Of a stretch of DNA of 64,000 nt, positions 23,475 through 56,723 are shown piece after piece. The position numbers and the translations under genes are program-made. How positions within the stretch are numbered: the first letter of the stretch is position 1; each line of letters opens with the position of its first letter. Under the pieces are notes generated by a model that saw only the letters and a program-made list of their open reading frames with translations, was not told where the DNA came from and ran no database searches. The DNA comes from a virus, in UHGV virus genome UHGV-1550212; one strand, given 5' to 3'.

Positions 23475-25232
23475 CTACTCTGCTTTTGTTGCTTGCATCA
23501 GTTCAGCAAAGCTTACAGTGTAAGCATCTTCACCAACAGTCACATATGCAGCATCAACATTTGAGTCATTGCCTGTGTATGCAACCAAGGTGCCTGCTGG
23601 AATTTCTACACCGTCAATTGTTAGCATCGAATTGACAAGCTTGTATGTCTTGTTATCTTCGAAGTTCTCATTGACATATGCAGCAGCAATCATTGTTGAA
23701 CGTTTACGAGATTCATTGACAAAGCTTGCGCCAACAAGTTCTGACAGCTTCTTCTTTGTTGCTGCAGAGCATTTGTCATATGCAATGTCAATTGCGAGGT
23801 CTACATCACCAAGTTCCTTTGCAATGAGTTCATCAATCTGAGACAGCTTCTTGTCATCTTTGACAGCGACAAAATTCATTGCAAACTTGCGAGCGTTGTC
23901 TGACAATGATTCATCAATGTTCCACTGTTTCATCAATGTCTGCTTCAACACCTTGTCAAGTTCTGACCAGTCCTTATCTGCAAGAGTAGTTGCATCAAAG
24001 TCTTCATTGCTGAACTGCTTCAGCACTTTGACTTTGTCATCATGTGACAATGCTGACCACTTGTTTGCAGCGTCTTCAGCAGATTCAAGCAGAGGCTTGA
24101 TTGCATCTTTGAGTTCTTGCGGCCAAGTTTCAGGCGCTTTGAGCAGCATCTCAGATGAGTTGTACTCAAGCATGTCTGTCATGATTGCAAGCTTGACATT
24201 GTTAGCTTTCTCTTCAGGTGACAGAGCTTTGAATTTTTCAGCCCAGTCTTCAGATTCAGTCACGATTGATGCAGGCTTTGCAAAACCAGCAACAAAAACG
24301 AGCTTGTACATGATGTTCGTCATGAATGAGCAAGCTGCATCGATATCTGACTGAGTTGCTGCAGATTGAGCATCACGAATGTTGAGCAATGCCTGACGAA
24401 GAGACATAATGCCTACAACAGGGTCAGACCATGTCAATACAACTGAACTATCGATTGTGATGCCCTTGTCAAATCGCATATTTTCTGCAATGCGGTCAGC
24501 AAGTTCAGGCAGTTCAGTGTAGTACTGCTCAAGCGCTGCATGTGCAGCAGGAATTGAAACTTTTGCAGCATCAAATGCGTTGTTGATGTGCATAACATGC
24601 GCAGTTTGAATTGACTGCATCAACATCGACACTACTGCAGATTCTGTTGCAACATCATCTGTTGCAGCTTCATTAACAAATGACGCCATTGCATTTTGCA
24701 GCATGTATTGATGGTCTCGTACTGGCAACTCAACAATTTCAAAGCCTTCAAGAGACTTTGGCGAATCAGTTGCTGAACCTGCTTCAAGACACTTCTTTGA
24801 TGCATTGTCAATGACAAACCACATCTTTTGTGCTTTGAGTGCAATGTAAGTCTTGTCTTTTGATTGCTGAACAGTCATGTTGTCAAGAGCCAACGCACTG
24901 ATTGGCAAATTCTTGACTGCTGACTTGTCAAGTGCTTCATTGACTGCTACATTGTCATCACTCATTAACTGAGTATTTGCAGCAAATGTTGCAGAATCAA
25001 TGCTAAGCTCTTTGCCATCAGGCATAGAGAACTTAACTGCATCTGCAACATCAAGCACTTGCACCATGGCGCCTGCTTCGACTTTGTCATCACCAACAGC
25101 GAACTCAGTTACAACCTGATATGCCTTGTTAGCTTCAACAGTTTCAACAGACTCCATAATGAACTTTGCTGTACTGCAAGAGATTTTGTGCTTTTTCATG
25201 TTCATGTATGAATTTGAGTGTTTGTTGTTCAT
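23475..25232 (-). CDS. hypothetical acidic protein (585 aa), candidate head/internal protein
   Basis: ORF track; motifs SFVNE-A, SFVNE-S, YVNE-N, AVNE-A. Confidence 0.5.
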   Translation of the reverse strand: MNNKHSNSYMNMKKHKISCSTAKFIMESVETVEANKAYQVVTEFAVGDDKVEAGAMVQVLDVADAVKFSMPDGKELSIDSATFAANTQLMSDDNVAVNEALDKSAVKNLPISALALDNMTVQQSKDKTYIALKAQKMWFVIDNASKKCLEAGSATDSPKSLEGFEIVELPVRDHQYMLQNAMASFVNEAATDDVATESAVVSMLMQSIQTAHVMHINNAFDAAKVSIPAAHAALEQYYTELPELADRIAENMRFDKGITIDSSVVLTWSDPVVGIMSLRQALLNIRDAQSAATQSDIDAACSFMTNIMYKLVFVAGFAKPASIVTESEDWAEKFKALSPEEKANNVKLAIMTDMLEYNSSEMLLKAPETWPQELKDAIKPLLESAEDAANKWSALSHDDKVKVLKQFSNEDFDATTLADKDWSELDKVLKQTLMKQWNIDESLSDNARKFAMNFVAVKDDKKLSQIDELIAKELGDVDLAIDIAYDKCSAATKKKLSELVGASFVNESRKRSTMIAAAYVNENFEDNKTYKLVNSMLTIDGVEIPAGTLVAYTGNDSNVDAAYVTVGEDAYTVSFAELMQATKAE

Positions 25233-25482: not shown

Positions 25483-26505
25483 TCATTGTTGTTTATGCCA
25501 GCCATATGATGCCTGACCAGCATCATACACTTCTACGAAGCCATGGTCGTACATAAAATCTTCATTACGAGTGCCCTTGCCCCCATTAGTGCCAAGAATA
25601 CGGTCTGCGCCATGCATAAGCAGCATATTATTTGTGACATGTTGCTTTGTCAGCATATTGAACCAGTGTTTGCTATATGACAAGCCAAGACCATCAAAGC
25701 CCAGCTTTGTGTACACACCACCGTCAAACTTGCTTAAATCACAATATGATAACACAGATTCAGGGTCATATGTCTTGATAAAGTGCTTAAAGATTCGTTC
25801 AGCACCACCAACAACTTTGGTTGCTGCACAAAGACGTAGCAATTCATATTGATAGCGCTTATTGTATCGTGGACGACCAAATGTCATAAGTTGATGAATG
25901 ACATAACCACCAAGCAACTCAAGTGGATGACCTTCAATCAACGCAAGATTGATAAAATTGCCTGAGCACTTGCCTTGCAAATGATGTTCAATCAAAAATT
26001 GATTTGCAGTATACTTGTCAATTTCAACAACTTTAAGCTTGCGAGCATATACAATCTTTGATTTGTCTACGATTTGATGCTTGATGTGATTGATAACTTT
26101 CTTGGCGTCATCCCAGTCCCACACATGAATGCAATGAAAGCCTGCTGATTTGGCGATGTCTGTTTTCTTTGCATGAATATCACAAGGCAAATGCGAATCT
26201 TTTGCATCATGCATAAACAGATGTTCAAATGAATGTGTGCTGTTATGTGAAAATGCAGGATTGATGTTAATGACAATATTGTCATGTCGAAAATCGAAGA
26301 CTTCATCGCCAATGACAAAGTTGCGCTCAAAATTTATACCGACATGTTTGAGTAACACTTGATGCCACACATCTTTATAGGCTGATTCAAGCTTGCTTAG
26401 CTCATCACAGTTTGCAATGTTTTTGTAACGTTGAATAGCAGCATCAAAGTCAAGATTGACTTCAGCGTAGTCTGCATTTTTATCGTAGTGAAATTTTGAG
26501 CTCAT
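25483..26505 (-). CDS. Vsr/DUF559-like nuclease-domain protein (paralog family; N-terminal nuclease module, extra C-terminal domain)
   Basis: NIVININPAFSHNS and GFHCIHVWDWDD match the family module; C-terminal GFVEVYDAGQ tail; ATG at 26505. Confidence 0.5.
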   Translation of the reverse strand: MSSKFHYDKNADYAEVNLDFDAAIQRYKNIANCDELSKLESAYKDVWHQVLLKHVGINFERNFVIGDEVFDFRHDNIVININPAFSHNSTHSFEHLFMHDAKDSHLPCDIHAKKTDIAKSAGFHCIHVWDWDDAKKVINHIKHQIVDKSKIVYARKLKVVEIDKYTANQFLIEHHLQGKCSGNFINLALIEGHPLELLGGYVIHQLMTFGRPRYNKRYQYELLRLCAATKVVGGAERIFKHFIKTYDPESVLSYCDLSKFDGGVYTKLGFDGLGLSYSKHWFNMLTKQHVTNNMLLMHGADRILGTNGGKGTRNEDFMYDHGFVEVYDAGQASYGWHKQQ

Positions 26506-26528
26506 GTGTATAATTTTGTATGAGATTA

Positions 26529-26536
26529 TTGTACAA
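26529..26536 (-). promoter_or_regulatory. TTGTACAA promoter-associated motif
   Basis: about 20 nt upstream of ATG 26505. Confidence 0.4.
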
Positions 26537-26612
26537 CATGCAAATGCATGTTGCATTTGATGCAAAGTACTGCGTACACAACATAAAGTACAAGTTTGTC
26601 TTTTGATAGACT

Positions 26613-27674
26613 TTACTTTGTATTGCTACGCGTCATTGTTAAATGACCGCAATCATACACATCAACTTCTGTTTTGCCAAGCATGCATGTATGACAATTT
26701 ATTTTGAAATCTGCTGCAGCGTAATCAGGATAGTTTAGTGGAGATTCTTTTGACAAATCAATTTCAATTGTGTCAGTAGTTTTAAGCTGTTCAGTACCTG
26801 CAATGATATCTGCAATAAGATTGATAACTTCTTCTTGTGAATCCCAATCAAACACAGTTATGCAACGATAGCCTACATCAAGTGCAAGTTTTGTTTTATT
26901 GTAATGGTATTGCGCACCAATAACATTGTTGTCTTTTGCTCGACCAGTTAAATATGCAAAACTAACAGTGCAGTTGTGCGTAACTGTTGGACAAATTTCT
27001 ATAAGTAACTTTGCAGGCTCATACTGCAAATCATATGTTTGATTATTGATGTTAAACTCGTACTGTGTATCAATTGCCAACTGTCGTAATAACGCATCAT
27101 GCCACATCATATTACATTTAGAAATTGTTTTGGATGACAATCTGCATTGAGGCAATTGACATGGCCAATCTACGCCGTACATTTGTTGTGTTGTTTGACG
27201 CATTTTGTTAACATCACCAAAATGATTGCCATATCGATGCTCTTTGGTTTTAAGCGACTGCTCAATATTGACATTGCCTACACAACCATAACGTTCAAGT
27301 TTTGTTGCAGCAGTTTTGCTAACATCACCATGTCCATTACCAAATTTGGCGACTTTAGTTGCAAGTATTTTATGACTTGGGCCAAATGCATTGCCATACA
27401 ATTCTTGTTTAGTCGCAAGCATTTTGTCGATATTACAACCAGCGCCATAAGTGTTATGCATAGTTTGCATACGCTGTCGAATAAATTTTGGCACAGATAA
27501 AGGACTTTCTACACCATATTTGCGTAAGCAACTGATTTTGCATGCGTACTTTTGCTTGATGACAGAATGTGCATTTCGACGTCCTATGTAAGTATTTTCT
27601 GATGTAGCAGCAAGCTCTGCATCTCTAAGAACTTCAAGTGCAGCAATTCGTGCTTCAATTTCTTCAGATGTCAT
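26613..27674 (-). CDS. RYG-repeat / Vsr-DUF559-like nuclease (putative free-standing homing endonuclease)
   Basis: seven ~21-aa tandem repeats each with R/K-Y-G (KYG, TYG, LYG, KFG, RYG, RYG, MYG); C-terminal LLIEICPTVTHNCT...GYRCITVFDWDS...VDVYDCGH. Confidence 0.55.
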   Translation of the reverse strand: MTSEEIEARIAALEVLRDAELAATSENTYIGRRNAHSVIKQKYACKISCLRKYGVESPLSVPKFIRQRMQTMHNTYGAGCNIDKMLATKQELYGNAFGPSHKILATKVAKFGNGHGDVSKTAATKLERYGCVGNVNIEQSLKTKEHRYGNHFGDVNKMRQTTQQMYGVDWPCQLPQCRLSSKTISKCNMMWHDALLRQLAIDTQYEFNINNQTYDLQYEPAKLLIEICPTVTHNCTVSFAYLTGRAKDNNVIGAQYHYNKTKLALDVGYRCITVFDWDSQEEVINLIADIIAGTEQLKTTDTIEIDLSKESPLNYPDYAAADFKINCHTCMLGKTEVDVYDCGHLTMTRSNTK

Positions 27675-27695
27675 TTTTTAATAGCATATTGATAA

Positions 27696-27703
27696 TTGTA
27701 CAA
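27696..27703 (-). promoter_or_regulatory. TTGTACAA promoter-associated motif
   Basis: 22 nt upstream of ATG 27674. Confidence 0.4.
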
Positions 27704-27760
27704 CATACAAATGCGTTTTGCATTTTTGATGTAGCAATTGCTTGCACAGTTTGCAAAAAA

Positions 27761-27791
27761 GAACCGCTTGCAATCTAATTGCAAGCGGTTC
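27761..27791 (-). terminator. rho-independent terminator downstream of the major capsid gene region
   Basis: 13-bp stem gaaccgcttgcaa / ttgcaagcggttc, 5-nt loop, followed by T6 on the minus strand. Confidence 0.6.
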
Positions 27792-27840
27792 AATGAATAC
27801 GTTTGTCAGAAACTGTCAATGTGTGCAATCGCTTGAAGAG

Positions 27841-27963
27841 TTAGCTGAACAGCTTGTTGATGCGATTGCTGCATTGGTGACTACCAAGCAGCCCATTGAA
27901 CATTGGATTCGACATCAACGTCTTTGTGGTTGTTGTTGAACTCACCAAGCCAGCAAGTATCAT
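27841..27963 (-). CDS. possible small ORF (40 aa) in capsid-gene 3' region
   Basis: ATG at 27963, TAA at 27841..27843; GC-rich codon usage like the capsid gene; weak. Confidence 0.2.
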   Translation of the reverse strand: MILAGLVSSTTTTKTLMSNPMFNGLLGSHQCSNRINKLFS

Positions 27964-28021
27964 TTAGCAAGTTTCCAAACTTAACGTACTTGTCGTTCCC
28001 CGGCTTGGGTGGCGCAGGTTG

Positions 28022-29737
28022 TCAAATCCAGCCGTAGTCGCTGTGGATAGCGAAGGTGAGATAAGCCAACTCGGGATACATACCCGTCTCCGCGAGAGCG
28101 TAATCCGACTCAATCAGCAACTTAGGTGCTGCTGTACCCTCAGCGGTTAATTCCACACTTGATGCAAGGTCATATGGCATGAATACACATCCCTGGTTGA
28201 CATTCTCTACGTCAACGCCGTCAGCAGTCTTGTTCGTACGAAGAACGAGAACAGTGTTATCGTTCAGCGGCTGCTTAGGATTGCAATAGATTTTAATGCC
28301 AGCCAAGTCACCTGCATAATACAGGTTCTTGTTGTCCTGTACCAGCGTATTGTCAAGAGCTGCAACAAAGTTCTTCTGAGCCTTAATTGCAACCAAGGCA
28401 ATCGTATTGACCACAGCAGCATCACCAGCACCGAAACGCGACAGGTTGCCAATGATTGTCGAAGCAGCCAGGATACGAGTTGCGATACGAGCCTGACGGG
28501 TAATCTGGTTCTCAGCCGAGCTGTTCGATTCAGCGTTAGGAACCATGCCGAACTCAGCCGTGCGGTCTACACCCATCTTGTCAACGAATGCAGGAGCCTG
28601 GAATTCCGAGAATGCCTTGGCAGTCGAACCAGCGTAGCCAATGTACAAGTTCAGGTTGTAGCCCTGAGCAGCCAACAGCTGAGCATGTGTCGTAACACCA
28701 AGTGCACGCATGCGCTTCAGACCATTGTCGTTGATTGACTGCGTGATTTCATTCTGCATTGCATTCTTGATGATTGCAACTGCATCCAAACCGCGAGCAC
28801 GGAGGTCCTTAACCTGGCGACGAGTCAGAGCACCCCAAGTCTGGTACGTCTTAACTTCGATAGCCTTTGAGAAGGTGCGGAGCTCCAGCATGTTCGGGTT
28901 GCCAGCCTCAGCCTCAGAACGAGACATTGGATTGCCGTCAAGGTCATCCATTGCAGCGAAGCCGTGGATGTGTTCGTCACCAGCCGAAACCAGGTCGAAC
29001 ATAACCTCAGTCATGCCAGTCAGCATGTCAGTTACAGCACCTGTAGCGTCAACCGAGTAGATTTTCGATGCAGCCATTGCAACATCAGCCAACGACTTGT
29101 CAGGAGCAACAGTCATTGCGCCACCAGCGCCAACGGTATATACGCCTTCATTGCGAACTACGAGGTAGCCTGCAACACGCGATACCTGTACGAACGTTAC
29201 CTTGGCAGCAAGCTCACCAGCAGCTGAACCGCCGATGTACAGAACTTGACCCTTCTTGAGGCCATGAACCATTGTCTGCGAAGCAACATTGTACAACTCC
29301 TTCCACTTGATGAGGAAGTAGCGAGGACCCTTGGCTGCGTTCAACTTGCCACCACCATACACGTAGTCTACATAGTCCAGCTGAACCAGCGGGCTGTATA
29401 CAGGAATGGCCGGGAGCAGGTCGAACAGAATCGTGTTGGCTGCGATGTTCATGTTCAGAGCCAGAACATTGGCAGCTACATCGATTGAACCACGCTTACG
29501 CGACGGGTCATGGAACTGTGCTTGCGTACCTGGGTCAGCAGGGAAAGCGACCGGACCTACGCCATTGAGATTCTGCGAATACGTCGACTCAAACGACTCG
29601 TTCATATACTGAACGTTCTGAGCGATTGATGCGAGCAGATACTTCTTAGCGGGCGAAAGCTTGGAGTCAAACGACTCATCAAGAACAGGGCCCCACTTTT
29701 TCAGCAATGCATCAATCTGTGTACGTTTTGCGTTCAT
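28022..29737 (-). CDS. major capsid protein (T4 gp23-like)
   Basis: N-terminus MNAKRTQIDALLKKWGPVLDE parallels the gp23 N-terminal pattern; 571 aa; markedly GC-rich C-ending codon usage; followed by a strong terminator. Confidence 0.7.
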   Translation of the reverse strand: MNAKRTQIDALLKKWGPVLDESFDSKLSPAKKYLLASIAQNVQYMNESFESTYSQNLNGVGPVAFPADPGTQAQFHDPSRKRGSIDVAANVLALNMNIAANTILFDLLPAIPVYSPLVQLDYVDYVYGGGKLNAAKGPRYFLIKWKELYNVASQTMVHGLKKGQVLYIGGSAAGELAAKVTFVQVSRVAGYLVVRNEGVYTVGAGGAMTVAPDKSLADVAMAASKIYSVDATGAVTDMLTGMTEVMFDLVSAGDEHIHGFAAMDDLDGNPMSRSEAEAGNPNMLELRTFSKAIEVKTYQTWGALTRRQVKDLRARGLDAVAIIKNAMQNEITQSINDNGLKRMRALGVTTHAQLLAAQGYNLNLYIGYAGSTAKAFSEFQAPAFVDKMGVDRTAEFGMVPNAESNSSAENQITRQARIATRILAASTIIGNLSRFGAGDAAVVNTIALVAIKAQKNFVAALDNTLVQDNKNLYYAGDLAGIKIYCNPKQPLNDNTVLVLRTNKTADGVDVENVNQGCVFMPYDLASSVELTAEGTAAPKLLIESDYALAETGMYPELAYLTFAIHSDYGWI

Positions 29738-29825
29738 GATTGAATTTGTTTGTTATTGAAAGTGAAACATATATTTCTGTATAATATGTATAGAACTACT
29801 GACATTGATTGAATTGTGAAAATGG

Positions 29826-31217
29826 TCATTTTTCAATCTTTTTGAGCAATGCATGACCACAATCATAGACTTCGACGAAGCCTGACGCAATCATTTGTTG
29901 CCTATCAAACCCATTGTCAAGTAGATGTTCCCATGTCTTTGTATTGTGCCAATGCAATTGAATTGATGATTTATCTGTACTAAGCTGCGGATTTTTTGAA
30001 AAGTCTGCACAGTCAATTTTGTCACCGTTAAGATGCTTACGAATGCATTCAATGACAGTGTCGTGGTCATCCCAGTCCCATATTGTTATGCATACATAGC
30101 CATGTTGTAATGCAATTTGTGTCTTGTCAAAATGACTATCATGTCTCTTTGGCCTATTACGCTTTGTGCGCTTAGTAATATATGCATATGAGTATGTTGA
30201 GTTATGCGAAAATGTTGGATTCACTTCAATCAACAATTTGCAATGTTCATTTTCATAATGCAAGTCATATGAAAAGCCAAGTAGCTTAACATCGTCATAA
30301 CTGCAATCAATGTTAAGCTCTTGTTGCAACTTATCATGCCAAAATTGATTTGGCTTAGATATTATGTTGCCTTGACTGTTTATGCAGTTAGAAGTCATAC
30401 ATGACCATGGCACGCCATAACGCTCAATGTTTGTTTTGTTTGCACTTGCTTGAATTTTTGACAATGGGCCCCATGGATGACCATACTTTGCACGCTTGAC
30501 ATCTGCACCACGTTTAGCAACTTCACGATAATCGCCATAACGCTCTTTTCTTGTAGCAAGCATTTTTGCAATATTGCCCGCGCCACGAGAGCCATATCTA
30601 AGCTCTTTAGTCTTTTGAGCTTTGGCGTAATCACCACAAAATGCATTGCCATATCGAGCAATTTTTGTTGCTTTCATTTTTTCAATGTTGCCTGCACCAG
30701 CATTGCCATAACGTTCAAGTTTTGTTTGCTTGGACAATTCAACATTGCCAAATTTGTTGCCATAACGCACTAATTTTGTTTCTTGTGAACGTTGACGTAT
30801 TTCTTGCACTTGTGCACAGTATTCTACGCCATAGCGTTTTAACATTGTTATTCGTTGATTATATGCACGTTTAATAGGTGCATGCGATGTTCGTTTTGGC
30901 CCATATTTAACAAACTCAGTAGATGCAAGTAATTCATCACGCTCACGTTCAAGTTCTGCAATTCGTTGTTGTATATGGACATCATACACAGGCTGCTCAG
31001 AAATGTCATCAATAGCTGTCGTTTCTAATTTAGCAAGTTTGCGTTTAAGAGCTTTTGTTGTTTGCGTGCAGCTCATTTTTATCAATGCATGTGCATGTCT
31101 GCCACAGTCAAGTACAATGTTAGGCTCATTTGCAAGGCGTTCATCACGTTTACATTCTGCAGCATGTATTGCATCAATAAGTTGTCGTCTCTTTACATTA
31201 TATTCGTCTTGTGTCAT
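29826..31217 (-). CDS. RYG-repeat / Vsr-DUF559-like nuclease (putative homing endonuclease)
   Basis: tandem repeats (KRYG, VRYG, ERYG, ARYG, LRYG, ERYG, AKYG, ERYG); C-terminal FSYDLHY...LLIEVNPTFSHNS...GYVCITIWDWDD...FVEVYDCGH. Confidence 0.55.
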   Translation of the reverse strand: MTQDEYNVKRRQLIDAIHAAECKRDERLANEPNIVLDCGRHAHALIKMSCTQTTKALKRKLAKLETTAIDDISEQPVYDVHIQQRIAELERERDELLASTEFVKYGPKRTSHAPIKRAYNQRITMLKRYGVEYCAQVQEIRQRSQETKLVRYGNKFGNVELSKQTKLERYGNAGAGNIEKMKATKIARYGNAFCGDYAKAQKTKELRYGSRGAGNIAKMLATRKERYGDYREVAKRGADVKRAKYGHPWGPLSKIQASANKTNIERYGVPWSCMTSNCINSQGNIISKPNQFWHDKLQQELNIDCSYDDVKLLGFSYDLHYENEHCKLLIEVNPTFSHNSTYSYAYITKRTKRNRPKRHDSHFDKTQIALQHGYVCITIWDWDDHDTVIECIRKHLNGDKIDCADFSKNPQLSTDKSSIQLHWHNTKTWEHLLDNGFDRQQMIASGFVEVYDCGHALLKKIEK

Positions 31218-31950: not shown

Positions 31951-32646
31951 TCATCGTACAGTGAATGAATTATCGTCATCTTCTGTAGTAGTTGGGTCAT
32001 CAATTACATCGTGGCCAATACCTGACATGGGCTCTGGCTCAGGTTCCGGTTCAGGTTCCGGTTCAGGTTCCGGTTCAGGCTCCGGTTCAGGTTCCGGTTC
32101 AGGTTCCGGTTCAGGTTCCGGTTCCGGTTCCGGTTCAGGTTCCGGTTCAGGTTCCGGCTTGGGCTTTGATGAATAGTTAAACATCTTGTGAATCCATTTG
32201 CACCACCATTTGTGACATGCATGTGCGCCATCATGATAATACGCTTGCAGCTCCATTGGAATTGCATGATATGCTTTGTCATGTGACATACCTTTGAATA
32301 TTCGCAAGTACACATAGCACAAGCAATATGCAATGTAGTACATAAGCGGTGATGCAAGCAGCCACCACCAGCTAAGCACATTGCATGCTGCAAGCACAAT
32401 AAGTACAAGCAACGTCGCAAGTGTTACAAAGATGAATTGCTTTGCATGCACAGCTTCATGCTTCAAGGTCTCAGAGTATCTGCTAAGTGTGTCATCATAT
32501 GACTTATCACTTCTTATGAAGCACATTGCACACAACGACATTGCATAATAATGTGAAAATGGAATGCATGGCTGGTCGATGACAAGCATTGGTCCAGCAA
32601 ACCACAGTCGCCACTGAGATTTATTTGGCAGTGTTGCAGTTTTCAT
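31951..32646 (-). CDS. membrane protein with HExxH motif and long (Pro-Glu)n repeat
   Basis: HEAVH motif next to two hydrophobic helices, then about 25 PE dipeptides and an acidic tail. Confidence 0.5.
32029..32160 (-). repeat. hexanucleotide tandem repeat (ggttcc/ggttca)n encoding (Pro-Glu)n
   Basis: about 22 near-perfect 6-bp units with a 12-bp super-period. Confidence 0.9.
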
Positions 32647-32709: not shown

Positions 32710-35547
32710 CTACTCAGCAGATGCACCTTGCAGTGACAATGTTGTACGATGTACGCCAATTCGAATGCCTTGAGCATTGATGATTTCAGTGTCAAGTACA
32801 ATGAATCCGCGAGCAATCGTTTCATCATCATTGTTGCTGCTATCGCAGACATTCGTGTACGAAACTGCGCCACCGGCTGCAACGATGCCATCCATGAAGT
32901 TGTCTGCTTTTGTTTTGACCTGCAAACGAACATTTGCAGTGTTTCGTTTGTACTGAGCAGACTTCAGATATGGCTCAATGTTGTCAGCGACATAGATGAG
33001 CAACTCAAGATTTTCAATGTAGCTGAATGCGCTGGTGTAAGCTACTTGTGCAGAACGAGATGTCAGCATTGTGATGACGCCTTGGTCTGAACGAGCGAGC
33101 ATGTTCCAACCTGCAGGTTCAAGGTCATCCATATCAGACCCTTCACCTTGCGAGACAATCATGTCAATGTCGGTTACACCAACACCAGACAGTGGCCACT
33201 CATCACCAGCAACGACGTCAAAGACATGCTTGCCTGCTTCTGTATGCTTTCTCATGAAGACATTCGACAAGATACCTGTTGCAGGAATCGTCATATCATC
33301 AATGCCATCATTGTAGCGAACATTGGCTACATATGTGATGAACGGTGCGCCATCAGTTTGACCTGCGAAGCTGAACAACTTGCTGTATGGTTTATCGGTG
33401 TTACCACCTGCAGCACAGTACTTAGACTCAATTGGGTCACCTGCATTGTCCTTAAAGTACGGGTCAGTTGAGCGGAACAAGTCATACTTGGTTGGCAGAG
33501 CAGAGAATGCGATTGCACGTTTTGAATCATTGCAAATCTTTGCAAACTCGTACTTTTGATTTGCTGCAATGTATGTCTTGAATGGGTCAACTACATAACG
33601 CCATTGACATTGATTGTGGTCCATCAAGCTACGATAAACGCCGCCTGAAATGAGAGCTTGCAGTACTTCTGTCTGACGTGCAGATGTGCCATCAACAAAT
33701 TGAGTTGCACGAAGAGCTACACCATGTAGATATGCGCCCTTGAAGAACTTAACTTGGTCAACAAGCTTCGTCAATGACCAAACAGACGCCTGCGAGGCGT
33801 ACTTCATCATTGAGCCATCTGCAAGTTCAAATTCGCCTTCAGCACCTGCAGCTTTGTATGCCAATGCACCAGTGAATTGATATTCAATCAGCACTTTGTT
33901 TTCTGCAAATGCGTCGTAGACATTCTTCTTCTCAAGCGGCGACAAATCAGCTTCAGTGATTGTGATTGGCATACCGCCATACTTGAGTGGCTTGTCTAAT
34001 GGCAGGCCATTTGAATCATATTCAACAAGGTCACCGCCATATGAAATTGTCTCACCTGCAGCTCTTGCTTTACGAGCTTTCGTTGATGAAGTTTCTGCAT
34101 CTGCAGACTCTTCGCCGCCAATTATGACTGTTGAGCCTTGTGGATAGATGAAGTTGCCCTTTGCATCCTGAGGGAATGCTACCTTTGCACCTGATTCGTT
34201 AGTGTACATTGGAATGCCGCCTTCCTTGCCAATGACAGGAACTGCGCGATATTCAGCTACAACTGCGCGACTTGTACAACGTACTGGCGAGCCATCTGCA
34301 CCAATAAAGATGTCGCCAAGCGAAATTGGCAACACTGGTGCAACAAATGAAGTCTTTGAAGCTTCACCTGGCTGCACAAATGGAACCATCACATTAACAA
34401 ACTCAGATGACACGAAGTCCTTGAGCTGTTCTTTTGTGATTGCGACATCTGTTGCTGTTGGCGTGCAGTCAATCTTTTCAGGATTGATGTCAGTTGACGG
34501 ACGAGCCATGCCAAGATATTGATGCGTAGCATCATCAGCAAACAGTGGACCTGCAGCGTCATCTACAGAAATGTAGTTCGAACCAAAGATGTCCACTGCA
34601 CGTTGGAAACGAGCATCTTCGATATCATTCGAATTGTAGAACTCGTCAACCTTGTCAGGGTCAATCTTACACATGATACCCGTCGTGTCTGACACTGCAT
34701 TCACAGCAGTTTCCAATGACAACTTGTTACCATTGATATCAAGCAAGTCAGGAATCAATGAGCCAGATACACGACCCATGTAGCCAGATGCAGCAAGCTT
34801 TGACAATGCCTCAGGACCATACATGCCATCAACTTGTGCACGGATACCATCCTTTGTGAAGTACTTGCCATATACAGTCGAACCTGCAAGTGACTCATAG
34901 TTCGTCAGCTTTTCAGAGAAGAACCAAACGTCAACCATATAGTCTGACACAAGGTCATTGCAATTCACGCCAGGCACATACATTGATGGGAAGCGGTCTT
35001 GAACTGACTTGATATCATAATCATAGCCAGTCAATGTCGTCGGCGTAATGAAGATTGTTGCAGACTTGTTTGTAAGTGTTGAGAAGTTGAGCAGTTGTAC
35101 AGGGTCAGTGCCAACTGCATTGAGCAGATTCAATGGCTCAGCTTTCCAGAAGTTTGATGTATCATAGACATCCTTAAATGGAACGTCTACAGGCGAGCCA
35201 TCTTCTCCTGAGCTGTTTGCAGCAAAAGTCACTCGTGACAACACATCGCTATCATTGAATGAGCGCAAGTTCAACACAAGAATTGGGCTTGTTGCAAGCA
35301 TTTGCTCTGCAATGAGACCAGCGAAACAGCCGGCACGCTCCAAACGCTTGTCACGTTGACCGAAAATTTCATGCAGCTGGTCTGCATCTTCAACAAGCGC
35401 GGCGCGATTGACCGGACCGTTCTTCCACTGGCCAGGCAGCAATCGAAGTGTTTGAGCGGGCAGTGAGTCAAGGCGACTTGCGTCAATGAACAGACGATAT
35501 GTCCCGACTGACTTGAACCGTTCAAATAAAGAAGTGTTATTTGCCAT
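32710..35547 (-). CDS. contractile tail sheath protein (gp18-like)
   Basis: N-terminal pattern PGQWKNGPVNRAALVEDADQLHEIFGQR parallels the gp18 W-GP...FG motif; large protein immediately upstream of tube gene; ATG at 35547. Confidence 0.65.
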   Translation of the reverse strand: MANNTSLFERFKSVGTYRLFIDASRLDSLPAQTLRLLPGQWKNGPVNRAALVEDADQLHEIFGQRDKRLERAGCFAGLIAEQMLATSPILVLNLRSFNDSDVLSRVTFAANSSGEDGSPVDVPFKDVYDTSNFWKAEPLNLLNAVGTDPVQLLNFSTLTNKSATIFITPTTLTGYDYDIKSVQDRFPSMYVPGVNCNDLVSDYMVDVWFFSEKLTNYESLAGSTVYGKYFTKDGIRAQVDGMYGPEALSKLAASGYMGRVSGSLIPDLLDINGNKLSLETAVNAVSDTTGIMCKIDPDKVDEFYNSNDIEDARFQRAVDIFGSNYISVDDAAGPLFADDATHQYLGMARPSTDINPEKIDCTPTATDVAITKEQLKDFVSSEFVNVMVPFVQPGEASKTSFVAPVLPISLGDIFIGADGSPVRCTSRAVVAEYRAVPVIGKEGGIPMYTNESGAKVAFPQDAKGNFIYPQGSTVIIGGEESADAETSSTKARKARAAGETISYGGDLVEYDSNGLPLDKPLKYGGMPITITEADLSPLEKKNVYDAFAENKVLIEYQFTGALAYKAAGAEGEFELADGSMMKYASQASVWSLTKLVDQVKFFKGAYLHGVALRATQFVDGTSARQTEVLQALISGGVYRSLMDHNQCQWRYVVDPFKTYIAANQKYEFAKICNDSKRAIAFSALPTKYDLFRSTDPYFKDNAGDPIESKYCAAGGNTDKPYSKLFSFAGQTDGAPFITYVANVRYNDGIDDMTIPATGILSNVFMRKHTEAGKHVFDVVAGDEWPLSGVGVTDIDMIVSQGEGSDMDDLEPAGWNMLARSDQGVITMLTSRSAQVAYTSAFSYIENLELLIYVADNIEPYLKSAQYKRNTANVRLQVKTKADNFMDGIVAAGGAVSYTNVCDSSNNDDETIARGFIVLDTEIINAQGIRIGVHRTTLSLQGASAE

Positions 35548-35653
35548 GTTCGTTATCGTATTTGTTGTAAATTGTGAAATGTTGCTTTGTTTGATTATAA
35601 CTTGATATATGTATGTATATGATGACATCAAACATGTTGTTGACCAAAATCAA

Positions 35654-39953: not shown

Positions 39954-40622
39954 ATGTCAACAAACAATCATGGCAAGCTCAGATTGCTTGAGCTCAAAGA
40001 AGCACAGCCATATGACACGCTCAAAATTGGCATTGACGTATCAGTAGATGCTACTGGCATGTGCATGATATTTGGCAAAACTGTTGCGCTGTTCAAATTT
40101 ACGCCGCACTTGCCACCAGAAGATGACAGTTCAGATGATGTGAATTTTGTGCAGTTCAACAAAATCTATCTGCAAACATCATCTTCTGCAAGAGAACGCT
40201 CAAAAATGCATACTCGACACACACTTGCAAACAAGATTGTTGACGCGATTGATATGTTCATGCAGGAAATTTGGCCGAATAGCCCAGCAAACATTCAAAT
40301 TGTTACAGAAGGGTCTGCATATGGCTATGCCGCACACAACTCTAACAGCTTGGTAGAACTTGCTGAATTTAGAAGCGTGATTTTAGAAAGAGTCTATCAT
40401 CGTTGGCCACTCGGCACGCATCTAAGTCTTGACGTTATTGCGCCAAAATCATTGAAGAAACATGCAACCGGTGACGGCAAAGCAGACAAACTAAAGATGA
40501 TTGAAGCTGCAATTGCTAAGTTGACACACATTCATTGGGCAGGCAAAATTGACGATGAATGCGATGCATTGCATCTTTGTCTGTATGAGCCATTAAGCAA
40601 TCCTGAACCACGACTTTGGTGA
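39954..40622 (+). CDS. RuvC-like Holliday junction resolvase
   Basis: KIGIDVSVDATG (catalytic Asp region), IVTEGSAYG, KSLKKHATGDGKADKLKM and DECDALHLCLY parallel RuvC motifs. Confidence 0.55.
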   Translation: MSTNNHGKLRLLELKEAQPYDTLKIGIDVSVDATGMCMIFGKTVALFKFTPHLPPEDDSSDDVNFVQFNKIYLQTSSSARERSKMHTRHTLANKIVDAIDMFMQEIWPNSPANIQIVTEGSAYGYAAHNSNSLVELAEFRSVILERVYHRWPLGTHLSLDVIAPKSLKKHATGDGKADKLKMIEAAIAKLTHIHWAGKIDDECDALHLCLYEPLSNPEPRLW

Positions 40623-42981: not shown

Positions 42982-44220
42982 CTATACACGTCTTGTCAAT
43001 TTGACATGACCGCAGTCATCTGCAAGCAGTTTAACATGACCGCAGTCATCTGCAAGCAGTTTAACATGACCGCAGTCATAAACTTTGACGAAGCCTGCAT
43101 CAATCATAGTTTGCTCATCATGATTGCAGTCAAGCACATGTGTATGAGTTTTCATATTGTACCAATGCAAGCCGATGTAAAAGTCAGTCTTGTGATATGC
43201 GTCAGTATATAATCGTGGGTCATCTATAGACAAATCAAGTTCGACGCAGTCAGCAGTCTGCAGTTGTTCTGTGTCAGTTAGCAATGATTTGACAAGCTTG
43301 ACTACAGCATCAAATGACATCCAATCAAATACAGTGATGCATCTATAGCCATGTTGCATAGCTGTGCAACATTTGTCAAAATGCGTAGTTGATGCAATTG
43401 GCTTGTTGACTGTAGAACGACCAGTAGCAAAATCAAATGCAAATGTGCTGTTATGCGTAAATGACGGATTGACATCAATTAGCAAATTGTCATATCGCAA
43501 ATCAAATGCGTAGCAATCTACGTCATGTTCATATTCAAAATCAACACCAGTATGCTCAAGTAGCATATCATGTAACAAGACGTTTGGCTTTGTAATGATT
43601 TTGCCATTTGCAAGTCTGCACTTCTGAGTTAAACAATGCCAAGGCACGCCATATCGTTCAAGTGTAGTGTTGCTAATCTTCTGCAAATTGCCAAAACCGC
43701 TGCCATAGCGTAATTGCTTTGTGACTGTTTGCTGTGCAACATTACCATTAGCATGACCAAACTTGTTGATGTTTGTTTGCTTGCGCTTAGCATTTGCAGT
43801 TGCAATATCAACAGATTCAAGTGACTCAAGAAATTTTGACATGTCGCCAAGCCCATTGCCATATAGTTGACGTTTAGTGTCAACAACTTTTGTCATGTTC
43901 CAGTGCTTGTAGCCATATCGAGCTTCTTTTGTCGCAAATGCTTTGTCATAGTTGCCAAAGCCTGCATGACCATATCGTTCAACTTTTGTTGCAGCAATTT
44001 TGTCTGAGACTTCTTTAAGCTGATGTTTGTATTCAACGCCAAACTTGCGCAAATTTGATATGCGAATGTTGAACACTCGTTTGACTTTTGTATGCGTAGA
44101 GCCTTTGTCAAGCTTTGCATATGGAATTTGTGCAAGTGCAGCGTCTCTTTCATCTTCAAGCTCTCTTATTCGAGCTTCAAGTGCATCACCAGCCAAAACT
44201 TCTATGCGTATAGTCTGCAT
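42982..44220 (-). CDS. RYG-repeat / Vsr-DUF559-like nuclease with C-terminal tandem decapeptide repeat
   Basis: N-terminal ALEARIRELEDERD coiled coil, RYG repeats, LLIDVNPSFTHNS...GYRCITVFDW...FVKVYDCGH; C-terminus DCGHVKLLAD repeated three times. Confidence 0.55.
   Translation of the reverse strand: MQTIRIEVLAGDALEARIRELEDERDAALAQIPYAKLDKGSTHTKVKRVFNIRISNLRKFGVEYKHQLKEVSDKIAATKVERYGHAGFGNYDKAFATKEARYGYKHWNMTKVVDTKRQLYGNGLGDMSKFLESLESVDIATANAKRKQTNINKFGHANGNVAQQTVTKQLRYGSGFGNLQKISNTTLERYGVPWHCLTQKCRLANGKIITKPNVLLHDMLLEHTGVDFEYEHDVDCYAFDLRYDNLLIDVNPSFTHNSTFAFDFATGRSTVNKPIASTTHFDKCCTAMQHGYRCITVFDWMSFDAVVKLVKSLLTDTEQLQTADCVELDLSIDDPRLYTDAYHKTDFYIGLHWYNMKTHTHVLDCNHDEQTMIDAGFVKVYDCGHVKLLADDCGHVKLLADDCGHVKLTRRV
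43001..43080 (-). repeat. 30-bp tandem direct repeat (about 2.7 copies) at the 3' end of the nuclease gene
   Basis: ttaacatgaccgcagtcatctgcaagcagt repeated. Confidence 0.85.
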
Positions 44221-44279: not shown

Positions 44280-45041
44280 TCAAATCATTCTGTTATCACT
44301 AACTGCAAAGTTGATATTGTTGTCTTTCAGATATTGCATGTATCGCTGAAAAATCTGGTCAGCTGTCAGTTTTTCATAATGATTCGATGGAATGAAGATT
44401 GCTTTAGACCAATCTTCATATTTGAACTCAATCAAGCCTGTCATTCGTGGTGGCAAATATGAACGAAATGCGAATGCTGCGCCATACTTTGTGACAAGTG
44501 AGCCAACTTGCTGCCATGTCATATGCACTGCAGTTTGTTCAGAACGATACATCTCGCCTTTGTATTTAGACGCAAATGCTTTGAAGACAGTCTCAATGAC
44601 AAGAAAACGAACTTCAAGAGGCAAGTGGTGCAAGTTTACACCCATGCTGACTACTGAGCCGTCCTTTGCAATATAATACGACAATGACAAAATTAACGGC
44701 GCGCAGTCGTACCAATCAAGTACATCTGCATGCTTTGGATTGTCATACACAAACATGTACAATTTCCCAGGTTCCATGTACTTTCTGCGAATCTGCACAT
44801 CAGGATTCGTAGCATATGATTTGAACCATGCAGCAGCTTCTCTACCACCGTTTGGCATTTTGTACCATGGATTGCTTCGAATTTCTTTGCCAAGGTCATA
44901 TTGACCGGACTTTACCAAACGATTGAATAATCGTTGTGCTGCAGTCAATATTGAACGTCCTACTGACTTCGCTTTGTCAATAAAAGACGTTTTTGCTTGT
45001 GTATCTAATGAATTAAACTTGGGCATATCTTTATGCAGCAA
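44280..45041 (-). CDS. hypothetical protein (253 aa)
   Basis: ORF track. Confidence 0.45.
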   Translation of the reverse strand: MLHKDMPKFNSLDTQAKTSFIDKAKSVGRSILTAAQRLFNRLVKSGQYDLGKEIRSNPWYKMPNGGREAAAWFKSYATNPDVQIRRKYMEPGKLYMFVYDNPKHADVLDWYDCAPLILSLSYYIAKDGSVVSMGVNLHHLPLEVRFLVIETVFKAFASKYKGEMYRSEQTAVHMTWQQVGSLVTKYGAAFAFRSYLPPRMTGLIEFKYEDWSKAIFIPSNHYEKLTADQIFQRYMQYLKDNNINFAVSDNRMI

Positions 45042-47781: not shown

Positions 47782-48405
47782 TTATGCATTGGCAATTTCA
47801 GATGGCATTCTGAACTTGATGTCATTATACACAAATGTCAATGTGAATGTCATCACGTTCTGGTCTACACGAGTTTTGTCATATGTGAGTTCTGAAATTG
47901 CAGAAAACACGACATCAATGAAGTCGATGCCAAACAATGGTTTCTTTGCACCGCCATATGTCGCTACAAATCTGCAGGGCTGAAAGTAGATAGTTTCGCG
48001 TTTATCGTTAGCGTATCTGAACAAACTCTCTAAGCAACAAAAATAGCTTAAACCACCATTCGTCAATCTGCATGTCACCTGGATTCGCTTATCAAGTGCT
48101 TGATGAATTGTCTTGCTGCCCTTATGAAACTGTGTAATTGACTTCTTCATGCCACTGTCATCAAGAACTTTATTGACATTCTGAGTAACAATTGGCATCG
48201 ATATGCCCATCAATGACACAGACTGAATTGAATCATGCAACAAGTCATTGATGTCATAAATGATTTGTGTTGGTTGTTGCACAAACACTTTATTGTAAGT
48301 ATCAGCAATATCTTGCGGAATCAAATCAATTGGCAAGTCAAAGCGAAACTGGTCTGACCGTGTATCGAGAATGAGCATATTTTTGATAATTTGTTTATGT
48401 ACCAT
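47782..48405 (-). CDS. hypothetical protein (207 aa)
   Basis: ORF track. Confidence 0.45.
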   Translation of the reverse strand: MVHKQIIKNMLILDTRSDQFRFDLPIDLIPQDIADTYNKVFVQQPTQIIYDINDLLHDSIQSVSLMGISMPIVTQNVNKVLDDSGMKKSITQFHKGSKTIHQALDKRIQVTCRLTNGGLSYFCCLESLFRYANDKRETIYFQPCRFVATYGGAKKPLFGIDFIDVVFSAISELTYDKTRVDQNVMTFTLTFVYNDIKFRMPSEIANA

Positions 48406-49604
48406 TAACTGTCATACGACCAGTGACCACAGTCATACACTGGCACAAATCCAGTGTCAAGCATTTCTTGCTCAATAAAGCCATCATCAAGCAAATGTTC
48501 ACCTGACTTCGTATTGACCCAATGCTTCTTAATTGTGCATTCATCAACCACAAAGGGATTAAGTGCATTGTCAGTGCAATCAATGAACACATTATTCAAA
48601 TGCGCGTCAATGACATGCAGCACAATTTCTGGGTTGTGCCAATCAAATATCATAAGTGGCGTGTAGCCACATACAATTGCAAGTTGTTGCTTCCACCAAT
48701 GATAGTTTGGCTGTTTTGCTTCTGCGGCATTTCGTTTAAAGCCATACACGCTATTATGAGTATGCGTCGGGTTAACGTCAATTAGCAGATTGCCATAATA
48801 CAGGTCATATGATGTTATGCCAACATCATGTTCAAACTCAAAATGCACACCAAGATGTTCTTCAATGTATGATTGCCACCATCTGTTTGGCGCAGATATG
48901 ATTTGCCCATTTGCTTGCATACATTTATTTGTCATGCAAAACCATGGCACACCGTAACGTTCCATACAGGTTTTTGAAATTGCAGCAAGCCATTCATCTT
49001 TGTCTCTATGCGGCCATGCATAACCATAACGCAGACGACATGTTTGTTGAGCTTTAGCAACGATTGGCGCTAAACGTTCACCGTATATTTCACGTTTAGT
49101 TGCGATGGCTTTGCGTGGATTAGTCCATCCAGCATCACCCCATCGCTCAAGCTTCGTTTGCTGAGATTTTTCAACAATCAGTTCAAGATTCTCACCATAT
49201 TTTTGACGACGAGTTTGCATTGCTGCAACATAATCTGTAATGCATCTATGGCCATACAAACGTTCTTTTGTCGCACTATGTGCTTTATCGCCATATGAAC
49301 TGCCGTAGCGTGCAACTTTAGTGGCAATTGTTTGCTTGATGTTGCCTGCTTTAGAACCATAACGAGCTTCTTTAGTTGCTACGCATTTTTGTTTGACTTC
49401 TGCTCTGTTCCAATTATGCTCAACGCCATGTTTACGAAGATGGCCAATTTTCATGTTGTACACGTTTTTGATATGACCATGAGATGTCTTACGTGGTGCA
49501 TATCGTACAAATGGTGTTTCTGCAAGCAACTTATCTCGTTCAGCTTCAAGCTCTTTAATTCGAGCTTCAAGAGCTTCACCAGTCAAATGCTCTACATGTT
49601 TCAT
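48405..49604 (-). CDS. RYG-repeat / Vsr-DUF559-like nuclease (putative homing endonuclease)
   Basis: N-terminal ALEARIKELEAERD, tandem RYG repeats, LLIDVNPTHTHNS...GYTPLMIFDWHN...FVPVYDCGH. Confidence 0.55.
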   Translation of the reverse strand: MKHVEHLTGEALEARIKELEAERDKLLAETPFVRYAPRKTSHGHIKNVYNMKIGHLRKHGVEHNWNRAEVKQKCVATKEARYGSKAGNIKQTIATKVARYGSSYGDKAHSATKERLYGHRCITDYVAAMQTRRQKYGENLELIVEKSQQTKLERWGDAGWTNPRKAIATKREIYGERLAPIVAKAQQTCRLRYGYAWPHRDKDEWLAAISKTCMERYGVPWFCMTNKCMQANGQIISAPNRWWQSYIEEHLGVHFEFEHDVGITSYDLYYGNLLIDVNPTHTHNSVYGFKRNAAEAKQPNYHWWKQQLAIVCGYTPLMIFDWHNPEIVLHVIDAHLNNVFIDCTDNALNPFVVDECTIKKHWVNTKSGEHLLDDGFIEQEMLDTGFVPVYDCGHWSYDS

Positions 49605-50089
49605 TCGTGTTTGCCAGTTTGAAATAACGAATCAATTGGGATGTGAATACCAGGTTTGGATTGAATGTTCCATCCGCGCGCCAAACCATTAAGTACGCAG
49701 CTCGTAAGGTAAGAAAACGCGTTTTGAGTTACTGTTGGGTCAAACATTTGCCACTTTGACGCCAAAATTAACATGGCTTCTGCTGCGACATCTGCTTGTA
49801 AGTCTTTGTCCCTGTAGTATAAACGTCTCTGCACATGTTTGATAAGCAACTCAAACATGTGTATAAGTTTATTTGACAGCTGTCCAGATACTTTGCATGC
49901 GCATATTTCTGCACAAAGTTCTTTGCTGTTGATGTAATAGTTTGATGGCTGACCTCGCTTCTTTGTGTTTGCAGCTTCTTCACGAAGTTGGTCTTCAAGT
50001 TGTGTCAACATGTCATCATCTGACACGTATTGAATATGCTTGTCTTCTGGTAGTTTAGATTCTATTGGTTGTAAGTTTTGCAGTGGCAT
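49601..50089 (-). CDS. late transcription sigma factor (T4 gp55-like), putative
   Basis: YYINSKELCAEI...AMLILASKWQ...NAFSYLTSCVLNGLARGW parallels gp55 conserved regions; ATG at 50089 downstream of TTGTACAA motif at 50119. Confidence 0.5.
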   Translation of the reverse strand: MPLQNLQPIESKLPEDKHIQYVSDDDMLTQLEDQLREEAANTKKRGQPSNYYINSKELCAEICACKVSGQLSNKLIHMFELLIKHVQRRLYYRDKDLQADVAAEAMLILASKWQMFDPTVTQNAFSYLTSCVLNGLARGWNIQSKPGIHIPIDSLFQTGKHE

Positions 50090-50153
50090 AGCAGTGAGCA
50101 TTAAAATTCCTATATAAATTGTACAACGCTTTGTGCACATTTGCAATCATAAA

Positions 50154-56358: not shown

Positions 56359-56709
56359 TTAGTACATTTCTCGTTTAACAAGAGCTTTGCGTTTTGAGCG
56401 TAGCCCTGCCCTATTACGTAATTCTACTGACCAATCACGAATCATTTGCCATGCAATCCCACCACGTTGAATACCACCGTGCTTGAACATTTCATTGCAA
56501 ATACCTTGAATAAACACCGCATCAGACTTTGTCAATGCGTCAACAATTTGACCATGGTTGTCTTCTGTCTTGACATCATTGCAAAGCTTAAGCTCATCTA
56601 CTGAAAGTTCGCCAAGCAGCTCATAGTAGTATATGAGAGCTTTGCGTGCGGCAATTGCTTTTCTTGAATTGCCAGAATAAGACAAAGTCACATGTTTGCT
56701 CATATTCAA
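56359..56709 (-). CDS. hypothetical protein (116 aa)
   Basis: ORF track. Confidence 0.4.
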   Translation of the reverse strand: MNMSKHVTLSYSGNSRKAIAARKALIYYYELLGELSVDELKLCNDVKTEDNHGQIVDALTKSDAVFIQGICNEMFKHGGIQRGGIAWQMIRDWSVELRNRAGLRSKRKALVKREMY

Positions 56710-56723
56710 TTATTGTTATGGTG

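Follow-up and report, generated by a model that had tools for sequence, protein, structure and literature searches.

A lineage-specific expansion of Hef-like genes with a Vsr-type nuclease domain in an uncultured T4-like phage

Five related genes sharing a C-terminal module lie among the structural and late genes of the virus genome UHGV-1550212, and raise the question as to whether they form a new family of free-standing homing endonucleases, as an earlier note made from the sequence alone had suggested, or belong to one already described. We examined a 64,000-nucleotide stretch of this genome (the window); relatives of this ~175-181-kb genome have further copies beyond the part that the window covers, and five copies is a lower bound. 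As judged from profile comparisons, all five genes (g1 to g5) are homologs of Hef of phage U5, a known class of free-standing homing endonuclease, and g2 to g5 are probably free-standing homing endonuclease genes (HEGs) from the Hef-like lineage within the Vsr-fold EDxHD family. They constitute a lineage-specific expansion of Hef-like/EDxHD HEGs that includes a short variant without a Mom-like domain and a derivative without repeats, and the overall result is mostly a tidy annotation of an uncultured T4-like phage. The genes, with product lengths in amino acids (aa), are as follows.

25483..26505, minus strand: g1, 340-aa Hef-like paralog without the repeat array
26613..27674, minus strand: g2, 353-aa short (Mom-less) Hef-like paralog
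29826..31217, minus strand: g3, 463-aa short Hef-like paralog with its N-terminal helical module duplicated
42982..44220, minus strand: g4, 412-aa short Hef-like paralog at the gp2-like/portal junction
48405..49604, minus strand: g5, 399-aa short Hef-like paralog adjoining the gp55-like late sigma gene

The five genes were found exactly where the earlier note had placed them, all on the minus strand, and the three conserved blocks that it quoted (YDL..LLI[ED]VNP[ST]F[ST]HNS, GY[RV]CIT[VI][FW]DWD and GFV[EK]VYDCGH) are present in their translations. Pairwise tblastn matches among g2 to g5 extend over nearly their full length (31-40% identity, E=1e-36 to 1e-84), whereas g1 matches the others only in the nuclease block, over ~100 residues (E=1e-9 to 1e-16). 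A tblastn search with g1 to g5 revealed no sixth copy in the window.

The relationship to Hef is clearest for g1, which matches phrog_3339 ('homing endonuclease') with E=6.6e-42; g3 and g4 match the same PHROG weakly. A tblastn search with g1 identifies 397 GenBank phage records, many annotated as 'Hef-like homing endonuclease' and some as 'nuclease/acetyltransferase', and one match in the T4-like coliphage LH2 is a 522-aa open reading frame (ORF) located exactly between nrdA and nrdB. This LH2 ORF shares 99.2% identity with the gene deposited under AY262133 as the hef of phage U5, and served as the U5-type Hef comparator in hhalign. The g1-type profile aligns with it across 244 columns spanning the nuclease and Mom-like regions (99.8%, E=1e-28), and the g2-g5-type profile over 73 columns of the nuclease block (92%, E=6.7e-7). 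With g3, tblastn against GenBank phages gives only three weak matches, all within the repeat region. Hef is the founding enzyme with a 'homing endonuclease-like function', taking the place of mobE and cleaving nrdB (PMC2988022; PMC3296691), and 'hef-like' is a standing category of HEG in T4-related phages (PMC2993671; PMC3296691; PMC2988022). In the 2011 description of I-Bth0305I, 'bacteriophage Hef type homing endonucleases' are expressly counted as members of the Vsr-like EDxHD family (PMC3239194).

Structural and profile comparisons of the C-terminal module point to the same family. Predicted nuclease domains are located as follows.

26077..26367, minus strand: g1 Vsr/EDxHD-fold domain, aa 47-143
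26808..27104, minus strand: g2 Vsr-fold nuclease domain, aa 191-289
30036..30341, minus strand: g3 Vsr/EDxHD-fold nuclease domain, aa 293-394, with D318, E331, N333, H338, H362, K365, D381 and W382
43285..43575, minus strand: g4 Vsr-fold nuclease domain, aa 216-312
48603..48878, minus strand: g5 Vsr-fold nuclease domain, aa 243-334

A Foldseek search with the g1 model returns 3r3p (I-Bth0305I) with probability 1.0, and a profile restricted to the nuclease domain also recovers 3r3p, in a register that places g3 residues D318, N333 and H338 on the EDxHD residues. The composite motif of I-Bth0305I, comprising a metal-binding Asp (D196, corresponding to Vsr D51), the variable x position (N208, Vsr H64) and a His (H213, Vsr H69), is thus matched, and g3 D318, the Glu/Asp at 331, Asn333 and His338 align with I-Bth0305I catalytic residues. 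D318 and H338 are invariant in all 64 sequences compared, and position 333 is Asn in 50 of them. The acidic residue ~10 positions before the motif Asp is Glu in g2, g4 and g5, Asp in g3 and Asn in g1; it is Glu in 47 of 48 g1-type proteins, its equivalence to the I-Bth0305I Glu falling short of residue level. These findings bear out the Vsr/DUF559-type restriction-endonuclease-like fold that had been assigned to the C-terminal module from its motifs, as far as structure models and profiles can establish it.

The setting of the genes is also that of T4-like HEGs. They are surrounded by a T4-like structural and late module, with matches to Gp23, Portal_T4 and Phage_T4_gp2 in Pfam searches on relatives; the placement among T4-like core genes described previously therefore stands, except that a tail-tube identity could not be confirmed for the 191-aa gene located upstream of g3. 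The third-codon-position G+C content (GC3) of g2 to g5 is 0.26-0.34, compared with 0.33-0.55 for neighboring genes, of which the following are the landmarks.

28022-29737, minus strand: major capsid
32710-35631: sheath
41168-42961: portal
44280-45041, minus strand: gp2-like DNA end protector
49601-50146: gp55-like late sigma

Close relatives provide the strongest indication that the genes are mobile. A megablast search of the region against GenBank phages yields no matches, and there is no close DNA-level relative there; a 175.6-kb IMG/VR contig, however, is ~95% identical to the window. Two stretches of one contig with this level of identity, L007 and L009, are particularly informative. L009 carries an extra 399-aa paralog of a sixth type (L009:3553-4752) as a clean insertion of ~1.2 kb directly after the TAA of the upstream gene, at a site that is empty in the window.

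56704..56723, minus strand: empty site, where a ~14-20-nt spacer follows the stop codon of the N-terminal DNA polymerase fragment; occupied in L009

At the g3 slot, L003, L007 and L017 instead have a 429-aa paralog with no more than ~29% identity to g3, in contrast to 98-99% for the proteins on either side. The g2 slot has a 57%-identical allele in L003 and L007, and a 99.4%-identical allele in L017, which indicates independent assortment of alleles between neighboring slots. Alleles of g2 are 96% identical over the 3' 308 nt and divergent upstream, with a breakpoint within the variable loop of the nuclease domain. The more distant L008 and L011 have no gene in the g4 slot, the gap between gp2 and portal being 128 and 96 nt, respectively. 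In L009 (17556-18674) this slot contains an unrelated 372-aa ORF with a match to a PHROG annotated 'endonuclease' (E=7e-10) and weak matches to TnsA_N and endonuclease I, indicating that a different nuclease gene occupies the slot. Unrelated slot-filling ORFs of L008 have no PHROG or Pfam match.

Signs of exchange extend beyond the genes themselves. The gp2-like gene abutting the g4 slot is 97-100% identical to that of L009 in its 5' part and 38-73% identical over the 3' ~540 nt, whereas on the other side of the slot the portal gene is 98% identical from its first codons; the divergent portion looks like a co-conversion or exchange tract.

44280..44800, minus strand: 3' part of the gp2-like gene that diverges next to the g4 slot

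The first 230 codons of g5 and its L009 ortholog differ at three sites, and the synonymous divergence (dS) of 0.007, compared with a background of 0.1-0.25, indicates recent exchange. This ortholog is also longer by one 19-aa repeat, and a nonsense codon interrupts its nuclease domain. Segments with 85-88% identity recur in copies from different slots and genomes. Further short paralogs are located elsewhere in ~181-kb relatives (L004:10001-11275, L015:7427-8548, L016:10001-11059 and L017:1-1165), adjoining the terminase large subunit gene or a sigma-70-like gene, near a helicase gene, or upstream of a 1316-aa gene, which brings the family to at least eight copies per genome. Selfish mobility of Hef-like genes in this clade is well supported. 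The earlier note would have given up its reading if Vsr-type similarity were lacking or if synteny were identical without polymorphism; on checking, Vsr-type similarity was found, and the comparison with related genomes that it had recommended revealed occupied and empty slots and swapped alleles between core genes, as expected of selfish free-standing genes. These occupied/empty and swapped-allele pairs in ~95%-identical genomes make the target sites of a poorly characterized family directly testable.

The empty site adjoins a split gene. The family-B DNA polymerase is encoded by two minus-strand genes (53138-54430 and 56724-58229), the N-part corresponding to profile positions 111-489 of 856 and the C-part to positions 504-842. 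The ~2.3 kb between the parts contains four small ORFs, for an unknown 116-aa protein, a dUTPase-like protein, a MazG-like protein and an unknown 275-aa protein, and the L009:3553-4752 Hef-like gene of the ~95%-identical relative is inserted exactly at the end of the polymerase N-part.

Several observations weigh against the conclusion that g2 to g5 are working homing endonucleases of this family. The Pfam search recommended in the earlier note was unrewarding: Vsr (PF03852), DUF559 (PF04480) and REase_MTES_1575 (PF18741) have no match to any of g1 to g5 at E<=1. (Even Hef matches MTES_1575 and DUF559 below threshold, at 1.8e-4 and 0.01, as does the VP-1 protein with Vsr, at 1.2e-4.) Searching the PDB by sequence with full-length profiles gives chance or low-complexity matches only (ribosomal L37a/L43, Med15 and HSH49), and all Foldseek matches to full-length g3 have E>=0.07. 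The final EDxHD Asp (I-Bth0305I D222, Vsr D97) lies within a variable loop where the alignment has gaps, and in g2 the counterpart of N333 is a Cys. Some of the copies may be inactive. The g5 and g2-slot genes have ratios of nonsynonymous to synonymous substitution (dN/dS) of 0.2-0.3, reflecting moderate constraint only, and the nonsense codon of the L009 g5 ortholog could be an assembly error. Cleavage activity and target sites are ascribed to these proteins by extension from Hef and I-Bth0305I, and DNA binding by the repeats and dimerization are likewise inferred.

Upstream of the nuclease domain, g2 to g5 have the tandem RYG arrays reported previously, but a repeat hidden Markov model built from these sequences counts six to nine units in each protein, recurring mostly every 18-19 aa (15-26 at the edges), rather than five to eight units of ~21 aa. 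The arrays correspond to Pfam DUF7487 (PF24308), with scores above the gathering threshold of 27 bits for g2 (30.1), g3 (38.2) and g5 (39.9), and slightly below it for g4 (24.8); g1 has no match.

27156..27545, minus strand: g2 DUF7487 array, 6 units, aa 44-173
30396..30860, minus strand: g3 DUF7487 array, aa 120-274, 8 of 9 units found
43630..44076, minus strand: g4 DUF7487 array, 7 units, aa 49-197
48933..49394, minus strand: g5 DUF7487 array, 8 units, aa 71-224

In the g3 model every repeat unit is one helix plus an RYGxxxGN loop. The array is preceded in g2 to g5 by an amphipathic helical module ('ALEARIxELExERD'), which is duplicated in g3. The DUF7487 array is plausibly a DNA-recognition module, since helix-turn-helix (HTH) or related motifs occupy the same position elsewhere: the Hef-like protein of VP-1 has several HTH motifs where g2 to g5 have repeats, and I-Bth0305I has NUMOD/HTH motifs at the corresponding N-terminal position (PMC3239194). 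DUF7487 is also fused to a bona fide DUF559/MTES_1575 nuclease, above the Pfam threshold, in P0088. A literature search for DUF7487 identified no paper. Because the array varies in unit number and exchanges segments, it is a candidate modular DNA-recognition domain worthy of structural study. A separate repeat is present at the 3' end of g4, where a 30-nt unit is tandemly duplicated 2.7 times (43000..43079, minus strand, 98% matches) such that the terminal peptide DDCGHVKLLA is triplicated.

The remaining gene, g1, departs from this pattern in both its parts. It lacks the repeat array, retaining only a vestige of the last unit ('IQRYK' compared with 'ERYGVPW'), and an additional domain of ~130 aa separates its nuclease block from the shared strands at the C terminus. 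At N62 and N80 it has Asn where 47 of 48 family members have Glu (N80 lies in 'IVININP' rather than 'LIEINP'), and these changes are common to the g1 orthologs in L003, L007 and L017. The g1 structure model has a predicted local distance difference test score (pLDDT) of 87.8 and a predicted template modeling score (pTM) of 0.84, and Foldseek matches its C-terminal half to the crystal structure of Mu Mom (8bv8, E=1.4e-7), followed by GNAT acetyltransferases.

25486..26058, minus strand: Mom-like (GNAT-fold) domain of g1, ~aa 150-340

The Pfam Mom family (PF25680) matches family member P0115 (E=2.5e-11, 44 bits), g1 itself being below threshold. Residues R111, S124, D149 and R151 of Mom are needed for momylation, and Y159 is also important (PMC13219725); in a weak hhalign alignment of the g1 family with the single Mu Mom sequence (E=0.09), R224, D256 and Y265, all family-invariant, pair with R111, D149 and Y159, and the equivalents of S124 and R151 are ambiguous.

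We considered g1 as a decaying pseudogene, and this is ruled out by its dN/dS of 0.03-0.05 (<=0.01 in the Mom-like half, with dS of 0.25-0.30), which equals the constraint on the capsid and sheath genes, together with its conservation at the same position in all four clade genomes seen. The residue changes suggest that the nuclease domain of g1 is probably catalytically impaired. Because the repeats and acidic residues are lost and the Mom-like domain is intact, fixed and under strong purifying selection, g1 is most likely no longer a homing nuclease and is kept for the function of its Mom-like domain. The usual ~500-aa family members have DUF7487 repeats followed by the nuclease and a Mom (PF25680) domain, and none of the five window copies has the complete three-part architecture of N-terminal DNA-binding region, nuclease and Mom-like domain: in g2 to g5 it is the GNAT/Mom-like core (~110 aa) that is gone, although the terminal strands (HWxNxKT...GFVxVYDCGH) are kept. 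P0105, the closest outside homolog of g1, combines the N-terminal helix, repeats, intact acidic residues and a Mom-like domain, and on this basis a P0105-like form is a plausible ancestor of both the g1 and g2-g5 types. The proximity of a constrained, apparently nuclease-dead, Mom-like g1 to mobile Mom-less nucleases bears on the question of why Hef-like enzymes carry a Mom-like domain, the candidate answers being self-protection through DNA modification, or something else.

If g2 to g5 are HEGs, then we envisage that each product, with its N-terminal amphipathic helical module, six to nine helix-loop (DUF7487) repeats and C-terminal Vsr/DUF559-fold nuclease, may dimerize through the N-terminal helix, such that a nicking-type active site could make a double-strand break, with the array recognizing DNA. 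By analogy with Hef and I-Bth0305I, Mg-dependent cutting of a long cognate target would occur during mixed infection in a co-infecting genome lacking the gene, and recombinational repair would then copy the HEG and adjacent markers into the cut genome. In this clade the genes sit in short intergenic spacers between core genes, and their turnover involves insertion, replacement, recombination between paralogs and decay.

The main rival to this interpretation is a restriction-modification-like conflict system in a single polypeptide, in which the restriction endonuclease (REase) attacks host or competitor DNA and the Mom-like domain protects the phage's own; in this clade the activities would be split, with g1 responsible only for modification and g2 to g5 only for cleavage. 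Fusions of Mom domains to REase-fold endoDNases in jumbo phages have been interpreted exactly so, as restriction-plus-momylation enzymes, with PA5oct named as an example (PMC7824862), and PA5oct is among the g1 tblastn matches; our literature search on a link between Mom and Hef found nothing direct beyond this described REase-Mom fusion. The intact, strongly selected Mom-like domain of g1, its loss of two near-invariant acidic nuclease residues, its fixation in all four clade genomes seen, and the absence of the GNAT core from g2 to g5 are all in keeping with such a division. However, the founder Hef is characterized as a homing-type endonuclease targeting nrdB (PMC2988022), and the insertion/empty-site and slot-swap polymorphism of g2 to g5 typifies selfish elements and not a fixed defense function. 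Moreover, DNA modification is a prediction, and the alignment with the Mom catalytic residues is weak, with the S124 equivalent ambiguous. We therefore regard this explanation as unlikely, and as better suited to g1 than to g2 to g5. A version that borrows from both is, in our estimation, likewise unlikely: an ancestral Hef-like nuclease plus Mom-like protein would have split into a fixed, modification-only g1 and mobile, nuclease-only g2 to g5 and further copies, with g1 chemically marking the DNA of its own phage in trans, thereby shielding it from the nucleases, and unmarked co-infecting genomes being cut. If true, the split would represent a distributed restriction-modification/homing hybrid.

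It could also be that g2 to g5 are domesticated, non-cutting DNA-binding proteins, such as late-gene regulators that retain a nuclease-like fold. They do adjoin late and structural genes and the late sigma factor gene, g2 has its Cys at the Asn333 position, and there is precedent for homing endonucleases co-opted as regulators in WhiA (PMC3781837). Nonetheless, conservation of the candidate catalytic residues extends over 64 relatives, and the genes are dispensable and variable between ~95%-identical genomes, with a nonsense codon in one ortholog; core regulators would not show empty sites, and we consider this very unlikely. The proposal of the earlier note, that the genes are a genuinely new homing endonuclease family with a domain combination not previously described, gains something from the lack of Pfam nuclease matches to the C-terminal modules and of a close GenBank phage relative at the DNA level. 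A family unrelated to those described is nevertheless extremely improbable, being refuted by the profile homology to U5 Hef and by the sequence and structure match to I-Bth0305I; PHROG and Pfam DUF7487 models and an EDxHD assignment already exist, and hundreds of GenBank genes are annotated as Hef-like.

With g2 to g5 interpreted as Hef-like HEGs, their closest counterparts are Hef of T-even phage U5 and the Hef-like HEGs of T4-related, ViI-like, Campylobacter and jumbo phages, which share a homologous nuclease block with g1 to g5 (IExDG/IExNP...H, YHxxKT and the GYxCIxxxDW region). RYG/KYG (DUF7487) repeats are found upstream in these too, with one clear unit and a KYG motif in Hef itself. 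Like hef, the genes described here are free-standing, intergenic and located between conserved T4-like genes, and the sharing of a slot by different nucleases, as with mobE and hef at nrdA-nrdB, is paralleled at the g4 slot. They differ from Hef in that g2 to g5 lack the ~110-aa GNAT/Mom-like core, and have a longer array (six to nine units) and an extra N-terminal helical module, and g1 lacks the N-terminal DNA-binding region and has Glu-to-Asn changes at two near-invariant positions. I-Bth0305I (PDB 3R3P; PMC3239194) shares the Vsr-type catalytic fold but is intron-encoded with NUMOD/HTH motifs, whereas the genes here are free-standing and intergenic with intact flanking genes, as are the Hef-type members of the EDxHD family (PMC3239194) in being free-standing, and have DUF7487 repeats and an extra C-terminal beta-hairpin remnant. 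Relative to Vsr, DUF559 and REase_MTES_1575 proteins, a zinc site and mismatch-intercalating elements are not evident, and the role of Vsr is in very-short-patch repair as opposed to the selfish mobility seen here. Mu Mom (PDB 8BV8; PMC13219725), a tRNA-Gly-dependent, DNA adenine-modifying GNAT, has a fold in common with the C-terminal half of g1, and the fusion of a Mom-like to an REase-fold domain in g1, lost in g2 to g5, is as in the jumbo phages (PMC7824862).

Other features of the region are less closely connected with the Hef-like genes. The T4 late promoter motif TATAAATA occurs twice in the sequence against an expectation of 1.39, with no occurrence near g1 to g5, and is uninformative. 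The sole sizeable plus-strand ORF in the long minus-strand block (39954-40622) encodes a 222-aa product whose RuvC match falls right on the Pfam threshold (22.2 bits, E=1.4e-4); the portal-proximal region of L017 has a further Hef-like paralog instead (563 aa, partly seen). The major capsid gene (28022-29737, minus strand) has a GC content of 0.51 and a GC3 of 0.55, compared with a window average GC of 0.41. Adjoining g1 is a DUF5856-containing gene (23475-25232, minus strand) that is locally hypervariable: identity with the L003, L007 and L017 orthologs is only ~77%, in the midst of genes that are 93-99% identical, and its product is 585 aa, compared with 640-667 aa in the orthologs. Finally, ORF 31951-32646 (minus strand) contains a tandem repeat of the 12-nt unit TCAGGTTCCGGT (9.9 copies, 32039-32157, 96% matches) encoding a short acidic/proline-type peptide repeat, and its protein, with 89% identity to the L007 ortholog, is the shorter of the two by 18 aa.

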